The notes: generated by a model from the letters alone, not told the origin. Positions 33,195 through 43,962 are shown, numbered from the stretch's first letter. The stretch is 64,000 nt of DNA from Fimbriimonadaceae bacterium (GCA_050250535.1 JBFWOL010000005.1:31735-95734), one strand, 5' to 3'. Numbers and translations: made by a program.

Positions 33195-33311
33195 CTAGCG
33201 AACTGTACTGCGGCCGCACCTTCTGGGTTGACCGCGCGGGACGAAGAACCTCCAGTAGATTGCGAAGTACGTCCCCTTCACGCCCCCGCAATTGCACCGA
33301 TACACAACTCG

Positions 33312-34031
33312 ATGAACAAGGGCGTGCTCTCTGCGGCCTCCGCAATGCAAGTGAGCCAGCAATGGCTCGACGCAATCGCGAACAACCTTGCGAACGCCAG
33401 TACTGTAGGTTTCAAGCGCGACGGCCTCGCCTTCGAGGAAGGCTATGAGAGCCAGGTTCGCGCCCAAGGCGGCCAAGGCTTCCCGGTAGGAACCGTGGGG
33501 CGCAAGACCGAGGTCGCGTTGGCCTACACCGACCAGACCCAAGGGGCGCTCGTCCCGACAGGCAACCCGCTCGACGTGGCGCTCACTGCTCCGGAAACCT
33601 ACTTTGCGATCGAGGTCGCAGGCGGCACCGCCTACACCCGAAACGGAAGCTTCCGGATCGGCGCGGACGGTGGTCTGACCGATCAAAGCGGGCGAGCCGT
33701 CTTGGATGAGGGGCTCGCCCCCATCAGGCTCGGGAAGGGCCCGATCGAAATTGGTGCCGACGGAGCGATCCTTCAGGGCGGGGCGACGGTGGCCCGGCTC
33801 GGCGTCTTCCAGGGAAACCTGAGCAAGGCAGGAGGAAACCTCTATAGGGGCAGCGCCTCGCCGGCAGCTGCGAACCTGCAATCCGGGCACCTGGAGTCTT
33901 CCAATGTCAATGCCATCGAAGAGATGGTCGCGATGATCCGCCTCAACCGTGTGTTCGAGATGGCGCAAAAGGCTATCCAGAGCCAGGACGAGAGCTCGCA
34001 ACGACTAATCCAATCCGCTCAGGACCGCTAA
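33312..34031 (+). CDS. flgF: flagellar basal-body rod protein FlgF
   Basis: N-terminal ANNLANAST(V)GFK motif; GTAYTRNGSF; C-terminal LESSNVN..EMV.MI..R.FE; ATG at 33312 (track ORF opens with TTG at 33228). Confidence 0.8.
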   Translation: MNKGVLSAASAMQVSQQWLDAIANNLANASTVGFKRDGLAFEEGYESQVRAQGGQGFPVGTVGRKTEVALAYTDQTQGALVPTGNPLDVALTAPETYFAIEVAGGTAYTRNGSFRIGADGGLTDQSGRAVLDEGLAPIRLGKGPIEIGADGAILQGGATVARLGVFQGNLSKAGGNLYRGSASPAAANLQSGHLESSNVNAIEEMVAMIRLNRVFEMAQKAIQSQDESSQRLIQSAQDR

Positions 34032-34134: not shown

Positions 34135-34923
34135 ATGATGAGGGCACTCAACACTGCAGGCACCGGCATGGTAGCCCAGCAGTTCAATCTAGACATTATC
34201 GCGAACAACCTTGCGAACGTCAACACGACCGGCTTTAAGAGCCAGCGCGCCGAGTTTCAAGACATGGTCTACCAGTCCTTACGCGCTTCTGGAGCCTCGG
34301 CAGGGGGGGCTGCGACCACTCCAGAGCCGGTACAGGTCGGACTTGGCTCCAAGTTCTCTGCAAGCGCGGCCAGCTTTGCGGCCGGGGCGTTCCAGAACAC
34401 AGGCAACGCCTTGGACATCGCGATCGCCGGAGACGGGTTCTTCCAGGTCGAATTGCCGGACGGCACGACTGCGTACACCCGCGACGGAGCCTTCAAGGTG
34501 GACGCTAACGGCCTCGTCGTGTCGAGCGACGGATATGCGCTTGTGCCGAACATCACAATCCCGACCGGGGCATCGCAGCCGACGATCTCGCCCACAGGCC
34601 AGGTCTCGGTAACCCTCCCGGGCCAGGAAGAGCCGAGCGAGCTCGGCACTCTGGAACTCGCCGTTTTTCCGAACCCTGCCGGCCTGACCAGGATCGGGCA
34701 AAACCTTTACCGAGCGGGCGGCGCTTCCGGATCCCCGTCCTCGGCCCAGCCTGGTCAGCAGGGAGCGGGAACGCTGCAGCAATTCGTAGTCGAGTCCTCG
34801 AACGTGCAGATTGTCGAGGAAATGGTCCGAATGATTACGACCCAGCGCGCCTATGAGATCAACTCTAAGGCGGTGCAGACCGCCGATGACATGCTGGGGA
34901 TTCTCAACAACCTGAAGAGGTAA
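34135..34923 (+). CDS. flgG: flagellar basal-body distal rod protein FlgG
   Basis: IIANNLANVNTTGFK, TAYTRDGAFK, VESSNVQIVEEMVRMITTQRAYE. Confidence 0.85.
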   Translation: MMRALNTAGTGMVAQQFNLDIIANNLANVNTTGFKSQRAEFQDMVYQSLRASGASAGGAATTPEPVQVGLGSKFSASAASFAAGAFQNTGNALDIAIAGDGFFQVELPDGTTAYTRDGAFKVDANGLVVSSDGYALVPNITIPTGASQPTISPTGQVSVTLPGQEEPSELGTLELAVFPNPAGLTRIGQNLYRAGGASGSPSSAQPGQQGAGTLQQFVVESSNVQIVEEMVRMITTQRAYEINSKAVQTADDMLGILNNLKR

Positions 34924-34928
34924 CAAGA

Positions 34929-36044
34929 ATGGTACTTGCACTCACAATGGCGTTGGTCGGGCCGGCCAACTACCACATCGAAGGAGACGGCTGGTTTCGT
35001 TTTCGACGAGAAGGCCGCGCCGTCTATGCGAACAGGGCCGAGCTCGTCTCGCGCGATGGCCGTATCGAGACGGCTTCTGGGCTGCCGCTTTGGCCCGAGG
35101 TCTCGGTCCACGGTACCGACTTCGTGGTCGCTCCAGACGGCACAGTGACCTGTGGCGGGGTGCAGACCGGAACCGTGGTCTTGGCCTATTTCGAATCAGC
35201 ACCACTGTTTGGTGAGGACGGGCTCGCCTCCTCCCCTGATAGGCCGAGCCTCACTCGGGTCAGGACAGGCACCCGGATCGTCAGCGAGGAGACAAGCACT
35301 GCACCGAGGGTCCGAATCCTATCGAGCCCGGCCGCGGAGGCTCGCGCCGCACTCCCACCCGCACCGGTCGAAGCGCCTCAGAGCATCACGCTGCGGCTGA
35401 CCGCAGAAGTGGACGGCCCGGCCGTGACCCTGCAGGATCTAGTCGAAGAGGCCCTGCCGACCGAGCTGGCAAACCTGGTGGTCACGACGGCCCCACCGAT
35501 CGGTGCGCGAATGACGCTCGATTCGGGGCGCGTGGAGGCCAAAGTCCGTGCAAGCGGTTTGATGCCTGAAGGATGGAGCGGGTTGGGCTCGCGCATGACG
35601 ATCCAGGTGGTTCGGTCCACGAACGCCGTGCCCCATTCGAAGCTCGTCGGTGCGGCTGCTGCTGGGCTCGCGGCCCAAGACTCGGGAGAGTGGATCGCCT
35701 CTGACAACCCTGGTGACTTCAGTGCACCGAAAGGTCGCGTTGAGCTAAGAAGCGAAAGGGCGGCAATATCGGGTAACACTGCCACGGTTGTTATCGCGGT
35801 CTATGTGGATGGGATTCGCTTTAACAGTCGCACGGTTCGATTGCAGCGTAAGTCGCTCCCCAATATGCCCTCCAAGGGTGCCGTCGTTCCTTTGCGAATG
35901 ATTGCAGGCATCGTAGTTGTGGAGTCTCGAGGGACCGTCACGGCTGTAGATATCGTCACCGGCGACGTGACGCTCAAGCTTGACACTGGGGCAGTGGTCA
36001 CGGGCCGCATGGCGGCCGATGGTTGCGTCGAGGTGCGGCGATGA
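34929..36044 (+). CDS. flgA: flagellar P-ring assembly chaperone FlgA with N-terminal rod-protein-like domain
   Basis: C-terminal SAF/FlgA domain (..GAVVPLRMIAGIVVVESRGTVTAVDIVTGDVTLKL..GRMAADGCVEV). N-terminal ~90 aa (YHIEGDGWFRF..AVYANRAEL..GTDFVVAPDGTV..VLAYFE) resemble the core of FlgF/FlgG. AAGAGG SD 9 nt upstream of the ATG. Confidence 0.6.
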   Translation: MVLALTMALVGPANYHIEGDGWFRFRREGRAVYANRAELVSRDGRIETASGLPLWPEVSVHGTDFVVAPDGTVTCGGVQTGTVVLAYFESAPLFGEDGLASSPDRPSLTRVRTGTRIVSEETSTAPRVRILSSPAAEARAALPPAPVEAPQSITLRLTAEVDGPAVTLQDLVEEALPTELANLVVTTAPPIGARMTLDSGRVEAKVRASGLMPEGWSGLGSRMTIQVVRSTNAVPHSKLVGAAAAGLAAQDSGEWIASDNPGDFSAPKGRVELRSERAAISGNTATVVIAVYVDGIRFNSRTVRLQRKSLPNMPSKGAVVPLRMIAGIVVVESRGTVTAVDIVTGDVTLKLDTGAVVTGRMAADGCVEVRR

Positions 36045-36637
36045 GGATCTTGACCTTGGTCGCGGCCTTGATGCTGAGTGCATCGGCGTTGGCGCAGGAC
36101 GGTTCTAAGGCAAACCCGGGCTCACTGGTGAACAGTGGCGCGTCGAGCCCGTTGACCGATATCGTAGCCCGGAGGGTCGGTGACCTGTTGACAGTCATCG
36201 TGGACGAGAAGGCACTGGCGGAGTTTGCCGCTAAGACCCAAGCAAGCAAGAGTGACAGCGCGAGTTTCTCGCCTTCGTTCTTCGTAGACTTCTTCCAGCG
36301 CATTTTCCGTCCATTCAGCGTTTCTTCGTCCAGTAAGACCCAGGGCGACGGTACGACGACGAACACGCAAAAAATGGAGGCGAGGCTAACCGCCAAGGTG
36401 ATCGAGGTGACGCCCGAAGGCAACCTGGTCATCGAGGGTGTCCGGACTCTCGTCACGAACAAGGACAGCCAGACGCTCTATGTGAGGGGCACGGTTCGGC
36501 GGTTCGACGTCCAGCCCGACAACACCGTGAAGAGCGCGAGCCTCGCCGATGCCGAGGTCAGCACCGTCGGTAAGGGCTTGGTCGCAGATCGCCAGAAGCG
36601 CGGATTGATCACGAGCCTGCTGGAGTGGCTTTTCTAA
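36041..36637 (+). CDS. flgH: flagellar L-ring protein FlgH
   Basis: Signal peptide; LTDIVARRVGDLLTVIVDE and LVIEGVR..QTLYVRGTVR..D...N.V motifs; ATGA overlap with flgA. Confidence 0.85.
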   Translation: MRILTLVAALMLSASALAQDGSKANPGSLVNSGASSPLTDIVARRVGDLLTVIVDEKALAEFAAKTQASKSDSASFSPSFFVDFFQRIFRPFSVSSSSKTQGDGTTTNTQKMEARLTAKVIEVTPEGNLVIEGVRTLVTNKDSQTLYVRGTVRRFDVQPDNTVKSASLADAEVSTVGKGLVADRQKRGLITSLLEWLF

Positions 36638-37854
36638 TGAAGAACATCGTATCTCTCGCTCTCCTGCTCGCCGCGGTGCTCGCGGGCGCGCAGGCTCCGC
36701 CGGCCACAGGTCAACCGGAGCTCACCGCCCAACAGAAGGCGGAGTTGGATCGGATTCTTGGCGAACGGGCCAAACAGGCCGACCAATCGATTCGAGACGC
36801 TGAGAACGGAGGCATTGCCGTGCGCCTCGGCGACATCGGCCAGTTCCGTGGGGCGCGGTCGAACGTGATTACCGGGATTGGCCTAGTTGTCGGCTTGGCC
36901 GGGACGGGGGACACGAAGTCCACGCCCTGGACCGCAACTCTGATCAGCAACGCCATGCGTCGATGGGGCACGTTTGTGGACGACACCGCCGTCCGATCGA
37001 AGAACATTGCAACGGTCATGGTGACCGCCGAAGTCCCGCCGTTCCTGGCTCCGGGCTCGAAGATGGACATCACGGTCAGTAGCAACGGAGACGCCAAGAG
37101 CCTGGAAGGAGGAGTCTTGCTGCCTACGTTCCTGGCTGGCCTCTCCAAGCCTGAGGACACCGTCGCCGTAGCGTTCGGCCCTGTGAGCATTGGAGGCTTC
37201 AACGCGTCTTCTGGAGGCTCCTCCGTGCGCAAGAACCATCCGACCGTGGCCCTCGTGACCGACGGAGCGACCCTCGAGGCGAGCGTCCCGACGCAGTTTG
37301 TCTTCGACAATGGCACGATGTACTTCGACCTCGACGACCCCGACTTTACGAACGCCGAACGGGCCGCGTCTGCCATCCAGCTTGCAGTGCCCGGGGCATC
37401 GGCACGCGCCATAGACGGTGCTACTGTCGAGATCACGCTTCCCGGCGGGATGCCTGCGACCGCGCTGGCGAGCCAGGTCAGCGGCACGACCATGATGGCG
37501 AACACGCCCGGCACGGTCGTGGTGAACGAGAGGACGGGAACGATCATCGTCGGCGGCAATGTCCGGCTCGGCCCCGCGCTCATCGCCCACGGCTCCCTCA
37601 GCGTAAGAGTCACCACCGACTACCTGGTGAGCCAGCCTGCTCCCTTTTCCGACGGCCAGACCACAGTGGTGGCGATCCCGAACGTCGAGGCGAGCGAGTC
37701 ACCTGCCCAGACCCAACTGATCGCTCCAAACGCCACGCTCAGTGACCTCGCCCGAGTGCTCCAGGAGCTCAAGGTCTCGGCTCGCGACGTTATCGCCATC
37801 CTCCAGGGACTCCAGCGCCAGGGAGCGCTCAAAGCCCGGGTGGTGCTCCAGTGA
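36637..37854 (+). CDS. flgI: flagellar P-ring protein FlgI
   Basis: Signal peptide; VRLGDIGQFRGARSNVITGIGLVVGLAGTGD; TAATG overlap with flgH. Confidence 0.9.
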   Translation: MKNIVSLALLLAAVLAGAQAPPATGQPELTAQQKAELDRILGERAKQADQSIRDAENGGIAVRLGDIGQFRGARSNVITGIGLVVGLAGTGDTKSTPWTATLISNAMRRWGTFVDDTAVRSKNIATVMVTAEVPPFLAPGSKMDITVSSNGDAKSLEGGVLLPTFLAGLSKPEDTVAVAFGPVSIGGFNASSGGSSVRKNHPTVALVTDGATLEASVPTQFVFDNGTMYFDLDDPDFTNAERAASAIQLAVPGASARAIDGATVEITLPGGMPATALASQVSGTTMMANTPGTVVVNERTGTIIVGGNVRLGPALIAHGSLSVRVTTDYLVSQPAPFSDGQTTVVAIPNVEASESPAQTQLIAPNATLSDLARVLQELKVSARDVIAILQGLQRQGALKARVVLQ

Positions 37855-38207
37855 CCGGGATTGGCCTCCGACCGGACTTCGCCAGGATCGTCTCTCAGGC
37901 GCTCCAGCCAGGGCAGGAGGTCTCGGAACTGACCCGGCTCAAGTTGGTGCGCGGCCAGCGTGCTTCCGAGGACTTTGAGGCAATGTTCGTCAAGAACCTC
38001 CTTGACGTGGCCCGGCGGACAACGCTCTCGCAGGACGAAAGCGCGGTCTCCGATTTCGCCCGCGACATGTTGAACACCGGAATCGCCCAGGCCGTCAGCC
38101 GGCGCGCGCCCGGGCTTGGCGTCGCCACCCTCGTCTTCCAGAAGACCGCCCAGGCGCTGATTGCGCAGGAAGAGTCTTCCCCGACCCCACCCGAAACACG
38201 ACCATGA
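37851..38207 (+). CDS. flgJ: flagellar rod-binding protein (FlgJ N-terminal domain only)
   Basis: ASEDFEAMFVKNLLDVARR..DFARDMLNTGIAQAVS matches the Rod-binding domain; no muramidase domain. Confidence 0.6.
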   Translation: MTGIGLRPDFARIVSQALQPGQEVSELTRLKLVRGQRASEDFEAMFVKNLLDVARRTTLSQDESAVSDFARDMLNTGIAQAVSRRAPGLGVATLVFQKTAQALIAQEESSPTPPETRP

Positions 38208-38692
38208 CAACCAAGAACATGACGAACCGGATCGAGCAGCTCTGGAAGGAGTGGCTTGCCATCTCCGAGCGCCTCCAGGGCCTGCTCCACGAACAGACGG
38301 TAGCGCTCACCATGCGCGATACCGCACGACTAGAGAAGCTCCAGCCCGCGATCGATACGGTCGTAGAGAAGCTCGGCACCGTGGATGCGGAAGCTGTGGC
38401 CATGGGGAAGAAGCTGGCCGAAGAGCTGGGGTGCGAACCCAGCCTTCGAGGCTTGACCCAGGCGCTTGAGAAAGCCGATGCACAGCGACTACAGCAGATC
38501 GCAAACCGGGTCATCGTTTCCGAAAGGCAGGCGAGCCACGTAATGAAGAAGAACCGCAGTCTGATCGAGAACGAGCTCGAGCACATCGGCGGAACCTTGG
38601 CTCTCATCGCTCGCGAGGCCTCGATCCCGACCAACCCGTACCTGCATCCATCCCCGGCGACCCACGCCGTCGTGATGAATGCGGTCGCGTGA
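38204..38692 (+). CDS. flgN: FlgN-family flagellar export chaperone
   Basis: Helical ~160-aa protein immediately upstream of flgK-flgL; FlgN-like N-terminal pattern. Confidence 0.55.
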   Translation: MTTKNMTNRIEQLWKEWLAISERLQGLLHEQTVALTMRDTARLEKLQPAIDTVVEKLGTVDAEAVAMGKKLAEELGCEPSLRGLTQALEKADAQRLQQIANRVIVSERQASHVMKKNRSLIENELEHIGGTLALIAREASIPTNPYLHPSPATHAVVMNAVA

Positions 38693-38734
38693 ACCGAGAA
38701 TACAGATATGCCCGGTTATCTCGACGGGGTGAGC

Positions 38735-40099
38735 ATGATGGCGCAGGCTCTGCGCGCGTTCCAACGCGGCATTGACACGGCCGGCCACAACCTGGCAAAC
38801 GTGAACACGCCAGGCTACTCTCGCCAGCGCGTGAACCTCTCGACGACTGAGGCAATGAGGTTCTACGAGGGGGACTGGCGGTTCCAGGGCCAAGGCGTGA
38901 ACCTAACTTCGATATCCCGGGCTCGCGACTTGGTTCTCGAGAGCCGTTGGCGTGGGCAGTTGGGCCAGTTCGTACGTGCCGAAACGTCGGCGAACGGCCT
39001 GGCTCGAATCGCCGGGGTCTATGCCGAACCCGGCGAGAACGGCATCTCCCATGCGTTCACCCGGTTTTTCGATGCATGGAGCGGGTTCGGAGCAAACCCG
39101 AACGACCAAGCGGCGAGACTCGAGGTCCGTCAGCAAGGGGCTAACTTAGCCAGCAGGATCCGGGGCGCATGGTTCGCCCTGGAAGGTGAGGCTAACCAGG
39201 CCACCGGCGACGTGCAGGACACCATCGCCCGGATCAACACCTTGGCAGGGCAGATCTCCGAATTGAACGCCCGGGTCCAGGCGTCATCCTTGGACAAGTC
39301 CAACCCCAACGACCTGTTGGACCAGCGTGACGCGGCGGTGCGCGAGCTTTCACAGCTAGTGAACGTGAGCGTCAGCCAGAACCCAGGTGGGGCGTATGTC
39401 GTCCATGCGTCCGGGTTCTTGCTGGTCACCGACTTCGGCGCACGGAGTTTCCCGTCCACCTTTGATGCGTCCACTGGGACGGTCAGCGATAACGGTGTGT
39501 CCTACACTGTCCGCGAGGGTGCCCTCGCCGGACACATGCAGACCCTGCGGACGGCCCGCACCCAGCAGTCCCAGCTCGACGTCCTCGCAAACGAACTGCG
39601 CGACGCGGTAAACACCATCCACCGCACAGGGACCAACTTCAAAGAGGTTACGGACATCGACTTCTTCAATCCGCGAAGCACGGATCCGCTCGTGCCGACA
39701 GGCGCATTCGACCTCGCACTTTCCGACCTCTTGCAGGAGAGTGCGGACTATGCGGTCGCAGGCGTCAGCGGCAAGCCGGGCGACGGTGCGCTCGCACACG
39801 AGATCGCCGGACTGCGGCAGGTCGCGCTGCTCGCGCTCAACGGAAGGACGTTGAGCGGGTTCTATGGCGAGCTATCCCATGGCGTTGCTGCTGACGCGGC
39901 CGCCTACCAGCAGTCGGCGGACATTGCCTCCGCGGTGCTCGACCAGACCGTCCAGCAGTCGGAGGCGGCGAGCGGCGTGAACCTGGACGACGAAATGGCG
40001 CAATTGATCCAGTACCAGCGGAGCTTCCAGGCCGCGGCCAAGGTGCTGTCGATCATGGACGAGGTCGCCCAAGACTTGATCGGGATGCTGAGGAGATAG
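38735..40099 (+). CDS. flgK: flagellar hook-associated protein 1 FlgK
   Basis: MMAQALRAFQRGIDTAGHNLANVNTPGYSRQR; C-terminal LDDEMAQLIQYQRSFQAAAKVL; GGGGTGAG SD before ATG 38735. Confidence 0.85.
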   Translation: MMAQALRAFQRGIDTAGHNLANVNTPGYSRQRVNLSTTEAMRFYEGDWRFQGQGVNLTSISRARDLVLESRWRGQLGQFVRAETSANGLARIAGVYAEPGENGISHAFTRFFDAWSGFGANPNDQAARLEVRQQGANLASRIRGAWFALEGEANQATGDVQDTIARINTLAGQISELNARVQASSLDKSNPNDLLDQRDAAVRELSQLVNVSVSQNPGGAYVVHASGFLLVTDFGARSFPSTFDASTGTVSDNGVSYTVREGALAGHMQTLRTARTQQSQLDVLANELRDAVNTIHRTGTNFKEVTDIDFFNPRSTDPLVPTGAFDLALSDLLQESADYAVAGVSGKPGDGALAHEIAGLRQVALLALNGRTLSGFYGELSHGVAADAAAYQQSADIASAVLDQTVQQSEAASGVNLDDEMAQLIQYQRSFQAAAKVLSIMDEVAQDLIGMLRR

Positions 40100-40101
40100 C
40101 G

Positions 40102-40983
40102 ATGAGGGTATCAACGAGCTACGAGTTCCTGAGCTATCGGCGCGACATCGAGGCGGCGCAGGGCCGCATGTTCGAGGCCCAAAGGCAGGTCAGCACCGGG
40201 AAGCGCTTCACACAGGCCGAAGAAGACCCTTACGCCTCGCAAGTGGTCGTGCAAGGCACCTCGCTCAAGCGGTGGATCGCCCAGACGGACCGGAACATCC
40301 GAACAGCGCAAGACTACTTGGGAACGACCGAGGTCGCGCTCGGCGAGTCGCTCGACGGCCTTCGGCGCGCCTATATGATCGCGGTCCGAGGAGCGAACGC
40401 CTCGGCCACCGCCAACGAGCGTGCAGCCTTGGCGCAGGAGATCGGCACGATCCAAGAGCGACTGGTCGACCTAGCGAACAGCAGGGCTGCAGGAGGGCAA
40501 TTCGTCTTTGCCGGACAGGAAAGCCAAAAAAAGCCTTTCCAGGCCCTGGACGGTCTCGTCTTTAGCGGCGACACCCTCGGGGTTTTCATCGAGACCGATC
40601 CGGCGAACCTGCAGAAGGTCAACCTCACGGACGCCTCGTCGTTCTTCCTCGAGGCGTACCAGCGTCTTACCGACCTCAAGAACCACCTTGGCAGCAACGA
40701 CCCGGGAACGATCGGAAGCCACGACATCGGCGAGATCGATGCCGCGATCCAAGACGCCCTGTCTCTTCAGGCAGAGACGGGCTATCGCCTGGAAAACCTG
40801 CAACAGCTCAGAGACCGGCACGCGGTTCGAAGCGACGACCTCACGGCCATGGTCTCAGATGCCGAAGATGTAGACGTTGCCGAGGCGGTAACGAAGCTGC
40901 GGCTCGCCGAGACCACGTACCAGGCGGCTCTCCAGTCAGTCGCCGCCGCGACCCGCATGCGCCTGATGGACTTCTTACGATGA
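40102..40983 (+). CDS. flgL: flagellar hook-associated protein 3 FlgL
   Basis: Flagellin-like N and C termini (..GKRFTQAEEDP.., ..LQQLRDRH..AMVSDAEDVDVAEAVTKL). Confidence 0.8.
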   Translation: MRVSTSYEFLSYRRDIEAAQGRMFEAQRQVSTGKRFTQAEEDPYASQVVVQGTSLKRWIAQTDRNIRTAQDYLGTTEVALGESLDGLRRAYMIAVRGANASATANERAALAQEIGTIQERLVDLANSRAAGGQFVFAGQESQKKPFQALDGLVFSGDTLGVFIETDPANLQKVNLTDASSFFLEAYQRLTDLKNHLGSNDPGTIGSHDIGEIDAAIQDALSLQAETGYRLENLQQLRDRHAVRSDDLTAMVSDAEDVDVAEAVTKLRLAETTYQAALQSVAAATRMRLMDFLR

Positions 40984-41438
40984 CGAAAACAACGCCGATC
41001 GCGACAGCACGGTTCGGAGAGATCGAGCCCACCGAGGATCGCGTCCTCCTGTTCGACCAGGGCCTCGTTGGGCTCCCCGGCCTTTCGCGGTTCCTGGCGA
41101 TCCCACACGGCGAGGACAGTCCGTTCGTTTGGCTCCAGAGTCTGGACGACACCGACCTTGCGTTCTTGGTCGTCGATCCGAGGGTCTTTGTCGCCGAGTA
41201 CGATCCCAAGATCCCGGTGCAAGAGGCGAACAGGATCGGACTGGACAAGCTGGACACTGCAATCGTCTATACTCTGGTCACGATCCCGCATGGTCGGCCG
41301 GACGCGATGACGCTCAACCTTGCAGGGCCCATTCTGGTCAACATAGAGACCCGCCGGGCCAGGCAAGTCGTGCTCGATACAGACGAGTGGGCGGTCAAGC
41401 ACCCGGCTTTCCGGCAGGATCAACGAGCCGCGGCCTGA
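40980..41438 (+). CDS. fliW: flagellar assembly factor FliW
   Basis: [47 protein letters not shown] is the FliW signature. Confidence 0.85.
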
Positions 41439-41685: not shown

Positions 41686-42099
41686 ATGTCAGCCAAGCCG
41701 CTCTGGCTCGGCGCATCGATCCGGCGGGCCGCTCTCCTTTTCGCAGTCCATTGCGTCGTAGGGATCATCTTCGTCCGGCTCTGGGAGGCGCCCACTGTGT
41801 ACGCGGTCGGGCTGGTCGCTTATCCTCCGTCCACCGCCTTCCTCTTCTTGCTTGCCTCTGAGGCGGCGCTGAGGCTGTTCTCGGCGTGGCAGGAGCCGGT
41901 GCCTTGGGTGCTGCTGGCTCTTTTGTTCACGGCCGTCGCCCACGCGACAGTTCGAGTCTCCCCTGCAGCAGGAGTCCCGGTGTTGGGGTACGAAGGGGCC
42001 GCAAGGCTCGACCTAGCCTGGCTGTCGCCATGGGTTTGCCTGACGTCCTGGGTAGCATCCAGCGCAGCCGGGCTCGTTGTTCGGCTTAGACCGTTGTGA
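41686..42099 (+). CDS. hypothetical membrane protein
   Basis: Four hydrophobic helices; no recognised domain. Confidence 0.4.
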   Translation: MSAKPLWLGASIRRAALLFAVHCVVGIIFVRLWEAPTVYAVGLVAYPPSTAFLFLLASEAALRLFSAWQEPVPWVLLALLFTAVAHATVRVSPAAGVPVLGYEGAARLDLAWLSPWVCLTSWVASSAAGLVVRLRPL

Positions 42100-43043
42100 A
42101 GGCCTGCTACGGAACCGATGCCCTTGTCCCCGCTTGGGGCGGCTGTACGGTCTGTATCGGCGTGTTCGATGGGGTGCACGTTGGGCACCGCCAGGTGGTT
42201 CGGGCCGCGGTAGCCGATGCGCGGCAGCACGATCGGCCCGCAATCGTCCTTACGTTCGACCGGCATCCTGCGCGGATCCTTCGCCCGGCCCTGGCACCAC
42301 CGATGATCTCGACACTTGGCCAGAACTTGAGGGCCCTCTCGGAGTGCGGGGCAGACCTCACCCTGGTGCTCCCGTTTGACCGAGCGCTCGCGGACACTAC
42401 GGCAGAGGAGTTCACACGGACGATCGTTGCGGGATTGCTCAAGGCGGAGCAAGTCGTGGTCGGACACGACTTCGCACTGGGTAAGGGTCGGGAGGGCACG
42501 CCCGCGTGGCTTGCCGAACGAGTTTCGACCACGGTGGTAGAGCCGTTCGGACCCGAGGGCCATCGAGTGAGCAGCAGCGAGATTCGTGCCGCGATCGCAG
42601 CCGGAAACGTCTCGGATGCCGCGAGGTGGCTCGGGCGGAACTTTGCCCTGGTCGGTTGCGTCGTGGGAGGCGAGCAGGTGGGCCGAACCCTGGGATACCC
42701 GACAGCGAACCTCGCTCCCATCGCTCGCCAGGTCGTGCCCGCGGACGCGGTGTATGTAGGCGAGTGTTGGGCTCCGGGCGGCGTGTACCGGGCCGCGATT
42801 TCGGTCGGTACCAGGCCGACGATGGGGGGAGCTACACGGGCGATTGAGGCGTTCCTGGTGGACTACTCTGGAGGATCATTGTATGGTCAATGCTTGGAAC
42901 TTACATTTTTCGCCAAAATACGTGACCAGGTGCGGTACGAGCGTCGGGAGGAACTGCAGGCACAAATCGCAGCCGACGTCGAGACGGTGATAAACTACAA
43001 GGAGAATCCATTCGTTGAGCCATCCGAGGCGGGGCAGGTATGA
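42096..43043 (+). CDS. ribF: bifunctional riboflavin kinase / FMN adenylyltransferase
   Basis: IGVFDGVHVGHRQV nucleotidyltransferase motif; C-terminal riboflavin kinase GYPTANL, E..L.DY.G.LYG. Confidence 0.85.
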   Translation: MKACYGTDALVPAWGGCTVCIGVFDGVHVGHRQVVRAAVADARQHDRPAIVLTFDRHPARILRPALAPPMISTLGQNLRALSECGADLTLVLPFDRALADTTAEEFTRTIVAGLLKAEQVVVGHDFALGKGREGTPAWLAERVSTTVVEPFGPEGHRVSSSEIRAAIAAGNVSDAARWLGRNFALVGCVVGGEQVGRTLGYPTANLAPIARQVVPADAVYVGECWAPGGVYRAAISVGTRPTMGGATRAIEAFLVDYSGGSLYGQCLELTFFAKIRDQVRYERREELQAQIAADVETVINYKENPFVEPSEAGQV

Positions 43044-43507
43044 AGAAGTGGGGATTGGTAGCCGTTGCGCTGGCCGTTGTCGGGATCCTCGTTGCGCCAC
43101 TCGTGTTCTTGCCCAGTGACCGCGACCTCGTGATCGAAGCATTGGACGAGGCGATCATTGCCGGCCGAGAAGGACGACCGGGCGGCGTGATGGAGCACCT
43201 GAGCAAGTCCATCGAGTACAACAATGTGCCGCTCGAGGATCGATCCGCAGTCGCAGAATTCATTCGTAGTGGGAAGCCGGATGTGGAGGTACTGAACAAG
43301 GAGCCCGTGGTGGAAGGTGACTCGGCGTCGATCCATTCTCCCGTTCGCGTCGAGTTCCGGTATGGCCCGCTCCAAGTCGCCCAGACCGTCGAGGACGTTC
43401 GGTTCGAGTTCAAGAAGGAGACCGGGACCCGCTGGCTCGTGGTTCCGGTCCCGAAGTGGAGGCTGGTTTCGATTCAGGCGTCCAACTTTGAACTGCCCGT
43501 CCCATGA
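43040..43507 (+). CDS. membrane-anchored hypothetical protein (NTF2-like domain; paralogue of 26187..26630)
   Basis: N-terminal TM anchor; C-terminal similarity to ORF 26187. Confidence 0.45.
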   Translation: MKKWGLVAVALAVVGILVAPLVFLPSDRDLVIEALDEAIIAGREGRPGGVMEHLSKSIEYNNVPLEDRSAVAEFIRSGKPDVEVLNKEPVVEGDSASIHSPVRVEFRYGPLQVAQTVEDVRFEFKKETGTRWLVVPVPKWRLVSIQASNFELPVP

Positions 43508-43551
43508 GAAAACTGTTTGGGACTACGAACCATGGCCCTATCGCGCGACGT

Positions 43552-43583
43552 TATAATCGCCGGGAGGCGCAATCGAGCCTCCC
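43552..43583 (+). promoter_or_regulatory. TATAAT -10 element (43552-43557) followed by a 7-bp perfect 5' hairpin GGGAGGC-gcaatcga-GCCTCCC (43562-43583) upstream of the repeat lipoprotein gene
   Basis: Read directly from the sequence; the hairpin lies between the -10 box and the GGTGAG SD/ATG at 43600. Confidence 0.3.
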
Positions 43584-43599
43584 AAGTGGTGAGATCAAA

Positions 43600-43962
43600 A
43601 TGAACAAGCTAGTCACTCTAATCCCTGTCGCCCTGATCATGGGCGCCCTCGTCGTCGGGTGCACCCCGACGGAGCCTGAGGGAACGACCACGTCCGGAGC
43701 CGGAATGGAGAATGCCGCAGAGAAGGCCGGTACCGCCATGACCGACGGCGCTGAAGCCGCTGGCGGCGCAATGAAGGAAGGCGCTGACGCCGCTGGCGAC
43801 GCCATGAAGGAAGGCGCTGACGCCGCTGGCGACGCCATGAAGGAAGGCGCTGACGCCGCTGGCGACGCCATGAAGAAAGGCGCTGACGCCGCTGGCGACG
43901 CCATGAAGGAGGGCGCTGGGAAGGCGACCGAGACTGCGGAGACTGCGACCGGCGGCCACTAG
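43600..43962 (+). CDS. lipoprotein with tandem 11-aa AMKEGADAAGD repeats
   Basis: ATG at 43600 gives lipobox LVVGC; the track ORF's upstream 32 codons overlap the previous gene and lack a signal. Confidence 0.55.
   Translation: MNKLVTLIPVALIMGALVVGCTPTEPEGTTTSGAGMENAAEKAGTAMTDGAEAAGGAMKEGADAAGDAMKEGADAAGDAMKEGADAAGDAMKKGADAAGDAMKEGAGKATETAETATGGH
43735..43920 (+). repeat. 5.6 tandem copies of a 33-bp unit gccatgaaggaaggcgctgacgccgctggcgac (in-frame, coding)
   Basis: Units at 43735, 43768, 43801, 43834, 43867 and a partial at 43900; near-identical copies. Confidence 0.8.

Follow-up and report, generated by a model that had tools for sequence, protein, structure and literature searches.

Organisation of the locus

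The stretch of DNA analysed here (64,000 nucleotides (nt) of a genome assembly of a Fimbriimonadaceae bacterium, hereafter the window) has a G+C content of 63% and contains a flagellar operon. Between the genes of the distal rod protein FlgG and the L-ring protein FlgH it carries a gene predicted to encode a FlgA-like protein of 371 amino acids (aa), in which a domain related to the D1 domain of the flagellar rod precedes the FlgA-like region. The product can be divided into four parts, namely a hydrophobic leader, a beta domain, a linker and the FlgA-like region (Table 1).

The open reading frame (ORF) lies exactly where the preliminary description of the window had placed it. Its start just after flgG, the Shine-Dalgarno-like sequence and the overlap with flgH, all claimed there, were likewise borne out: the flgG stop codon (TAA, 34921-34923) is separated from the start codon by 5 nt, and the stop codon shares the tetranucleotide ATGA with the start of flgH. 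According to a sequence scan there is no in-frame start between the preceding stop codon and position 34929, and no second FlgA-like ORF was found within the 64-kb window. An entry of the NCBI database that is 100% identical to the product is annotated as “MAG: hypothetical protein [Fimbriimonadaceae bacterium]” (MAG, metagenome-assembled genome).

Table 1. Features of the FlgA-like gene and of the surrounding flagellar genes in the window.
Feature	Position	Strand	Basis or remark
FlgA-like gene with N-terminal rod-D1-like domain	34929..36044	+	371 aa plus stop
Start and stop codon of the FlgA-like ORF	ATG 34929; TGA 36042-36044	+	sequence
Shine-Dalgarno-like GAAGAGG	34914..34920	+	8 nt 5' of the FlgA-like ATG, directly before the flgG stop
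Hydrophobic leader, aa 1-13, MVLALTMALVGPA, presumed Sec-type signal	34929..34967	+	no positively charged n-region
Rod/hook D1-like beta domain, aa 14-122	34968..35294	+	homologous to FlgG ~92-217
Pro/Ala-rich disordered linker, aa 123-149	35295..35375	+	predicted local distance difference test (pLDDT) <50 for aa 123-142
FlgA-like region, aa 150-371	35376..36041	+	last ~65 aa: D3 beta-barrel (ChapFlgA)
flgF	33228-34031		Pfam
flgG, distal rod protein	34135..34923	+	Pfam Flg_bb_rod, LlgE_F_G_D1 and Flg_bbr_C
flgH, L-ring protein	36041..36637	+	Pfam FlgH, E 3.4e-42
flgI, P-ring protein, presumed chaperone client	36625..37854	+	Pfam FlgI, E 2.8e-99
Short rod-binding (FlgJ-N-like) protein	37851-38207		Pfam
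flgN	38204-38692		Pfam
flgK	38708-40099		Pfam
flgL-like	40102-40983		Pfam
fliW	40980-41438		Pfam

Relationship of the N-terminal domain to FlgG D1

Based on profile searches the N-terminal domain represents the D1 beta core of the rod and hook proteins and ends at the site where the C-terminal D0 helix of the rod proteins begins. The Pfam family PF22692 (FlgE/F/G D1) matched aa 17-74 of the window protein over nearly the full length of the profile, with an E-value of 9e-4 that stays below the gathering score. Weak matches to the FlgG and FlgF models of NCBIfam showed the same register, and a BLASTP comparison with the FlgG of the window yielded a sequence identity of 26% (E 8e-4).

The relationship was more pronounced at the family level, for which 37 diverse members sharing 25-63% identity with the window protein were analysed. 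PF22692 matched 29 of them (best E 4.9e-10) and the NCBIfam FlgG model TIGR02488 matched 25 (best E 2.9e-11). Two separate profiles were furthermore built from the diverse members, one for the N-terminal domain (corresponding to aa 9-122 of the window protein) and one for the C-terminal domain. The former detected Salmonella FlgG among the PDB sequences with an E-value of 3.4e-10, profile positions 6-102 being aligned in register with FlgG residues 93-193, and a second FlgG entry of the PDB over residues 92-217. FlgG was the best hit by score, followed by FlgE (E 1.6e-5). The FlgG of the window was matched over residues ~92-214 (E 6.9e-13), while the same profile did not match the FlgF of the window. 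A profile of the whole protein built from six close homologues only gave no meaningful result against the PDB sequences.

The AlphaFold2 model of the N-terminal domain was of high confidence (pLDDT 95.2; predicted template modelling score 0.87), and the family consensus “...GRLVLAxF...RPxLGxPGEGxxGVIR” parallels the segment “...GQLNLTTF...PGLNGAGLL” of FlgG. The resemblance to FlgF and FlgG noted in the preliminary description thus proved to be a significant relationship to the FlgE/F/G D1 family in the profile search that had been set as a test beforehand. It holds for the region indicated there, with the end located near aa 122 and therefore slightly beyond the aa 100 given originally.

The D0 helices that flank D1 in the axial proteins, and on which the rod proteins depend for type III export and for polymerisation, are missing, as had been stated for the ANNLAN and SSNV motifs. 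Neither PF00460 (Flg_bb_rod, covering the ANNLAN-bearing N-terminal D0 helix) nor PF06429 (Flg_bbr_C, the C-terminal D0 helix) was detected in the window protein or in any of the 37 members, and a loose motif scan of these members (NN[LIVM][AS]N or SNV) was negative except for one match to one of the patterns in P0115. The L-stretch (Dc) of FlgG cannot be present either since it lies N-terminal to FlgG residues 92-217, where only the 13-residue leader stands in the FlgA-like protein. Lacking both D0 helices, the FlgA-like protein is not an axial subunit, and its homology is confined to D1.

Leader, linker and FlgA-like region

The leader suggests that the protein is exported via Sec into the periplasm. 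All 37 members have a hydrophobic stretch in their leaders, the median length of which is 18 aa, and several members possess a textbook signal peptide, such as MTRRLLFLCALLASVAPAFA. In the AlphaFold2 model the leader has a pLDDT below 50. The linker varies between 14 and 106 aa across the family and is rich in proline (16%) and alanine (13%).

The assignment of the C-terminal part to FlgA is supported by family profiles, by matches to FlgA structures and by the position of the gene between flgG and flgH-flgI. TIGR03170 (flgA_cterm) matched 21 of the 37 members (best E 6.7e-9) and PF13144 (ChapFlgA) matched 17 (best E 3.3e-7), and the C-domain profile detected residues 130-194 of Salmonella FlgA (3TEE), which constitute D3, with an E-value of 5e-5. 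A Foldseek search with the whole model retrieved the FlgA structures 3FRN (E 1.2e-5), 3VJP (E 1.5e-3) and 3TEE (E 2.4e-3) with a probability of 1.00 each. For the window protein alone PF13144 gave no match at E<=1, and two of the six other close homologues reached an E-value of 0.0088. The FlgA fold is composed of D1 (a helix and a sheet), a SAF-like D2 and D3. The Pfam SAF domain was detected neither in the window protein nor in the 37 members. Hence, the C-terminal third described originally as a normal SAF/FlgA domain is indeed FlgA-like, but the region spans ~220 aa, of which only the last ~65 aa are recognisable by sequence, and SAF is not detected.

Directly before the FlgA-like region a motif P(S/T/D)xEF(L/I)(R/Q)xGGV was observed in nine members (P0009, P0014, P0023, P0035, P0063, P0069, P0090, P0094 and P0100). 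This motif is absent from the subfamily of the window protein and may form a short helix or a docking element.

Distribution and conservation of the fusion

An exhaustive HMMER search of 1.84 billion representative sequences, clustered at 50% identity, revealed 398 representatives related to the window protein at E<=1e-3, of which 268 reached E<=1e-10. With few exceptions the 150 top-ranking ones are 350-470 aa long and match end to end, so that the fusion is present in at least ~150 clusters. Word-indexed homologue searches identified six to seven close relatives of 359-371 aa. The same single ORF was also found in four species-representative genomes, two of them labelled Fimbriimonadaceae, one Chthonomonadaceae and one Chthonomonas sp. 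UBA2362. The named cluster members seen were Fimbriimonadaceae, the others being unnamed “hypothetical protein” records of the JGI. Within the taxonomic range sampled, every named member is assigned to Armatimonadota, apart from a fragment of 87 aa whose MAG carries the label Gammaproteobacteria. NCBI designates QYK57465.1 as FlgA, while the other five of six records are “hypothetical”.

The gene order inferred by tblastn in the other loci is flgF-flgG-[N-domain, C-domain]-flgH-flgI-...-flgN-flgK. The core arrangement flgF-flgG-X-flgH-flgI, with X denoting the FlgA-like gene, is shared by the window and the loci L001, L003 and L004, and locus L002 stops inside X. Across the four loci FlgG is 66-92% identical, whereas the identity of the FlgA-like protein is 62-66% in the one close genome and drops to ~30% in the three distant ones. 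For the same genome pairs, ~30% identity in the FlgA-like protein compares with 66% in FlgG and ~52% in FlgI. The FlgA-like protein is thus fast-evolving, and both of its parts always occur together. The mean column identity of the N-terminal domain (42%) is about equal to that of the FlgA part (47%), and the large family conserves the whole architecture, which is subject to purifying selection.

These observations confirm that the fusion is real. An artefact, in which a frameshift, a mis-assembly or a wrong start joins a small ORF to flgA, might be suspected from the scores of the window protein below the Pfam thresholds and from its G+C content at third codon positions (GC3) of 0.69, the minimum of the flagellar operon, in the rest of which it ranges from 0.73 to 0.80. 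The low GC3 also fits the much faster divergence of the gene. However, the same ORF recurs among the six to seven close homologues, in more than 150 representative clusters and in the four GTDB genomes, the two parts both exceed a pLDDT of 90 in the AlphaFold2 models, and there is neither an internal stop codon nor an alternative start upstream. The possibility of a separate short ORF in related genomes had been named beforehand as a test. None was found, as a single ORF of ~350-470 aa comprising both parts occurs in the four loci and in almost all of the 150 top-ranking clusters. With full-length relatives and a single ORF in other, independently assembled genomes, a frameshift or mis-assembly is effectively refuted and its probability negligible, which agrees with the original view of the gene. 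Also in agreement with that description, no account of the architecture was found in the searchable full-text literature.

Neighbouring genes of the flagellar operon

The FlgG of the window aligns without gaps to residues 3-258 of Salmonella FlgG, and its FlgI matches FlgI entries of the PDB with E-values from 1e-58 to 2e-65. The TTG start listed for flgF adds ~28 residues ahead of the N-terminus of the rod protein, and the real start is probably an ATG at ~33312, which would give MNKGVLSAASAMQ. A scan for promoters and terminators over the operon yielded counts no higher than background.

The FlgH protein contains no cysteine at all. Its leader (MRILTLVAALMLSASALA-QDG) lacks the lipobox cysteine that makes Salmonella FlgH a lipoprotein, and the FlgH of this lineage may consequently be anchored or assembled differently. 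The FlgI protein comprises 409 aa, and its Pfam match begins at residue 67. Between signal peptide and core (aa ~25-66) there is a charged, probably helical extension of ~40 aa (PELTAQQKAELDRILGERAKQADQSIRDAEN); for L003 and L004, which are more distant, the tblastn matches to FlgI begin at residue 38. The additional domain of FlgA could have a lineage-specific partner in this extension.

The gene downstream of flgI is predicted to encode a protein of 118 aa with a weak match to the Pfam Rod-binding family (FlgJ N-terminal; E 0.0085) and no muramidase domain. This single-domain FlgJ-like protein is kept in L001 and L004, and tblastn found none in L003. Downstream of fliW three ORFs of 137-155 aa with high GC3 (41686-42099, 43040-43507 and 43504-43962) flank ribF, the gene of an FAD synthetase/riboflavin kinase. 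None of the three has a Pfam match at E<=0.001.

Possible role of the D1-like domain

In Salmonella FlgA is a periplasmic chaperone whose D3 domain binds FlgI; how FlgI is sorted and delivered to the nascent basal body is described as unknown, a role as its pilot having been proposed for FlgA (PMC4895218). The P ring of Salmonella forms on the surface of FlgG D1, where FlgI binds first and tightly, with Lys-63 and Lys-95 of FlgI facing the acidic FlgG D1 residues Asp-109, Asp-154 and Glu-203 (PMC8298488).

We tentatively prefer the reading, at a confidence a little short of even, that the N-terminal domain acts as a surrogate of the outer rod surface on FlgA. The FlgA-like protein would then be the FlgA of this lineage, exported via Sec to the periplasm, where its C-terminal D3 barrel would hold monomeric FlgI by analogy to Salmonella. 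The tethered D1 module, which putatively goes back to a partially copied flgG next to it, would supply a rod-related recognition and occupy the rod-facing side of FlgI. Such a two-point binding, for which the long flexible linker would permit an intramolecular clamp, may stabilise FlgI and block premature ring formation until the lone tethered copy is displaced by the multivalent FlgG lattice and FlgI is handed over. A partial duplication of the adjacent flgG with subsequent fusion to flgA is a plausible origin of the gene. The N-domain profile scores similarly for the FlgG of the window and that of Salmonella, which suggests that the duplication and fusion are old.

The positions aligned to Asp-109 and Asp-154 of Salmonella FlgG are acidic in 30 and 28 of the 37 members, respectively, according to column counts. 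Several observations weigh against a surrogate function, however. Both retained acidic positions lie in beta-turns (D/E-G) and may be kept for folding alone, and the FlgG of the window possesses Thr154 and Ser203, so that the contact map of Salmonella may not be transferable. The net charge of the N-terminal domain averages ~0 within the family (range -5 to +4; -4 in the window protein) as compared to -7 in the D1 domain of the window FlgG, which has a pI of 4.05; a faithful electrostatic copy of the rod is not supported by this comparison. An arginine (Arg24) is invariant in the family in place of Gln-104 of FlgG, and positions 27, 30 and 35, which surround the tip of the hairpin, carry conserved basic residues. 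Binding to an acidic partner, for instance the rod, would explain these residues no less well than mimicry. Moreover, the presumed Sec signal of the window protein is short and without a basic n-region, and the window protein stays below the FlgA thresholds of Pfam and NCBIfam, its identity as FlgA resting on family-level and structural matches.

The basic hairpin leads to another explanation, which we consider possible and rank only slightly below the surrogate function. The D1-like domain may bind the assembled FlgG rod itself and tether FlgA-FlgI at the nucleation site of the P ring, thereby raising the local concentration of FlgI. Binding might be achieved by lattice-like D1-D1 contacts at exposed edges or by the conserved arginines on the acidic surface of the rod. 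This docking is favoured by the invariant Arg24 and the basic positions 27, 30 and 35, which are located on a hairpin whose tip is surface-exposed in FlgG, and by the strongly acidic D1 of the window FlgG as compared to an N-terminal domain that is near neutral on average. A flexible tether of 14-106 aa suits a reach-and-deliver mechanism, and the sorting of FlgI is unexplained, with FlgA proposed as pilot (PMC4895218). The side faces of D1 are nevertheless buried in the finished rod lattice, which would leave homotypic contacts at the tip only, and the net charge of the N-terminal domain is not conserved and even negative in the window copy. That the D1 module was purpose-built, be it as a copy of the rod surface or as a docking hook, and nucleates or positions the FlgI ring, or that the motors of Armatimonadota retain the protein as a lineage-specific periplasmic component beside the P ring, seems rather unlikely.

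Instead of acting as a transient chaperone, or in addition to it, the protein could also persist in the basal body as a stable structural part. In Armatimonadota its two domains, D1-like and FlgA-like, would then form or decorate a ring or collar that encircles the rod in the periplasm. Many lineages have added periplasmic rings to the core motor, the family is large with both parts conserved, and the N-terminal FlgI extension of ~40 aa hints at lineage-specific contacts of the P ring. A divergence much faster than that of its structural neighbours (~30% identity against 66% in FlgG and ~52% in FlgI) is typical of an assembly factor, though, and a linker varying between 14 and 106 aa would be unusual in a fixed spacer, which makes this explanation improbable. 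Even less probable is a neutral relic, a D1 module left from a partial flgG duplication that would at most serve as a solubility or spacer domain without a specific partner. The position of the gene directly downstream of flgG renders a duplication-fusion origin plausible, and the conserved positions of the N-terminal domain are mostly the glycine, proline and aromatic residues that determine the fold of FlgG. But some lineages should have lost a neutral domain or let it decay, whereas the N-terminal domain is kept in almost all of the 150 top-ranking representative clusters despite sequence identities of only 25-35%, matches the FlgA part approximately in its conservation and exhibits a family-specific invariant residue, Arg24, that is not found in FlgG.

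Comparison with known flagellar proteins

A FlgA with a FlgG-D1-like domain represents a lineage-conserved fusion that is, to our knowledge, new to the searchable literature, and its role is conjectural. It bears on two questions, namely the nucleation site of the P ring on the distal rod and the role of FlgA beyond the binding of FlgI. A natural FlgA with a tethered copy of the FlgI-binding domain of FlgG offers a ready-made experiment in which the module is separable. The D1 fold of axial proteins can exist outside of polymerising subunits exported by the type III system, and annotators gain a reason for the frequent “hypothetical” labels of such proteins. If the D1 module is indeed a purpose-built copy of the rod surface or a docking hook, this would be the first time that an assembly factor exported via Sec has acquired a domain of a flagellar axial protein, and one domain and one tether would provide a direct handle on the delivery of FlgI to the distal rod and on templating at this site.

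With the FlgA of Salmonella (3TEE/3VKI/3VJP; PF13144, TIGR03170) the window protein shares the D3 barrel by sequence, the adjoining flgH and flgI genes and a hydrophobic leader. It differs by being ~150 aa longer, by the extra D1-like domain with its Pro/Ala-rich tether and by a SAF domain that is undetected by Pfam. The FlgA of Thermotoga maritima (3FRN) consists of four domains including an extra N-terminal D0 (residues 17-84, ~68 aa). It ranked first in the Foldseek search with the whole model and provides a precedent for an additional N-terminal domain in FlgA (PMC4895218). The N-domain profile does not match 3FRN, however, and an identity of the N-terminal domain with the D0 of Thermotoga FlgA was rejected in view of the lack of any detectable relation.

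The D1 domains of the axial proteins FlgG, FlgF and FlgE (PF22692; 6JF2, 5WRH, 7BIN, 1WLG, 9WWJ) are related to the N-terminal domain by in-register homology corresponding to FlgG residues 92-217. Unlike these proteins, the window protein lacks the D0 helices and the Dc/L-stretch and cannot polymerise as an axial subunit, and in place of the type III export signal it has a hydrophobic leader. Compared to FlgG, the N-terminal domain carries the invariant Arg24 instead of Gln-104 and is near neutral instead of strongly acidic.

PapD-type pilus chaperones supply, by donor-strand complementation, a surrogate of the surface that the later polymer partner offers to the subunit. The FlgA-like protein would share with them the concept alone, without any relation in sequence or structure. 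Taking D3 and the gene context into account, the protein is best filed as a variant of FlgA and not as an axial protein.
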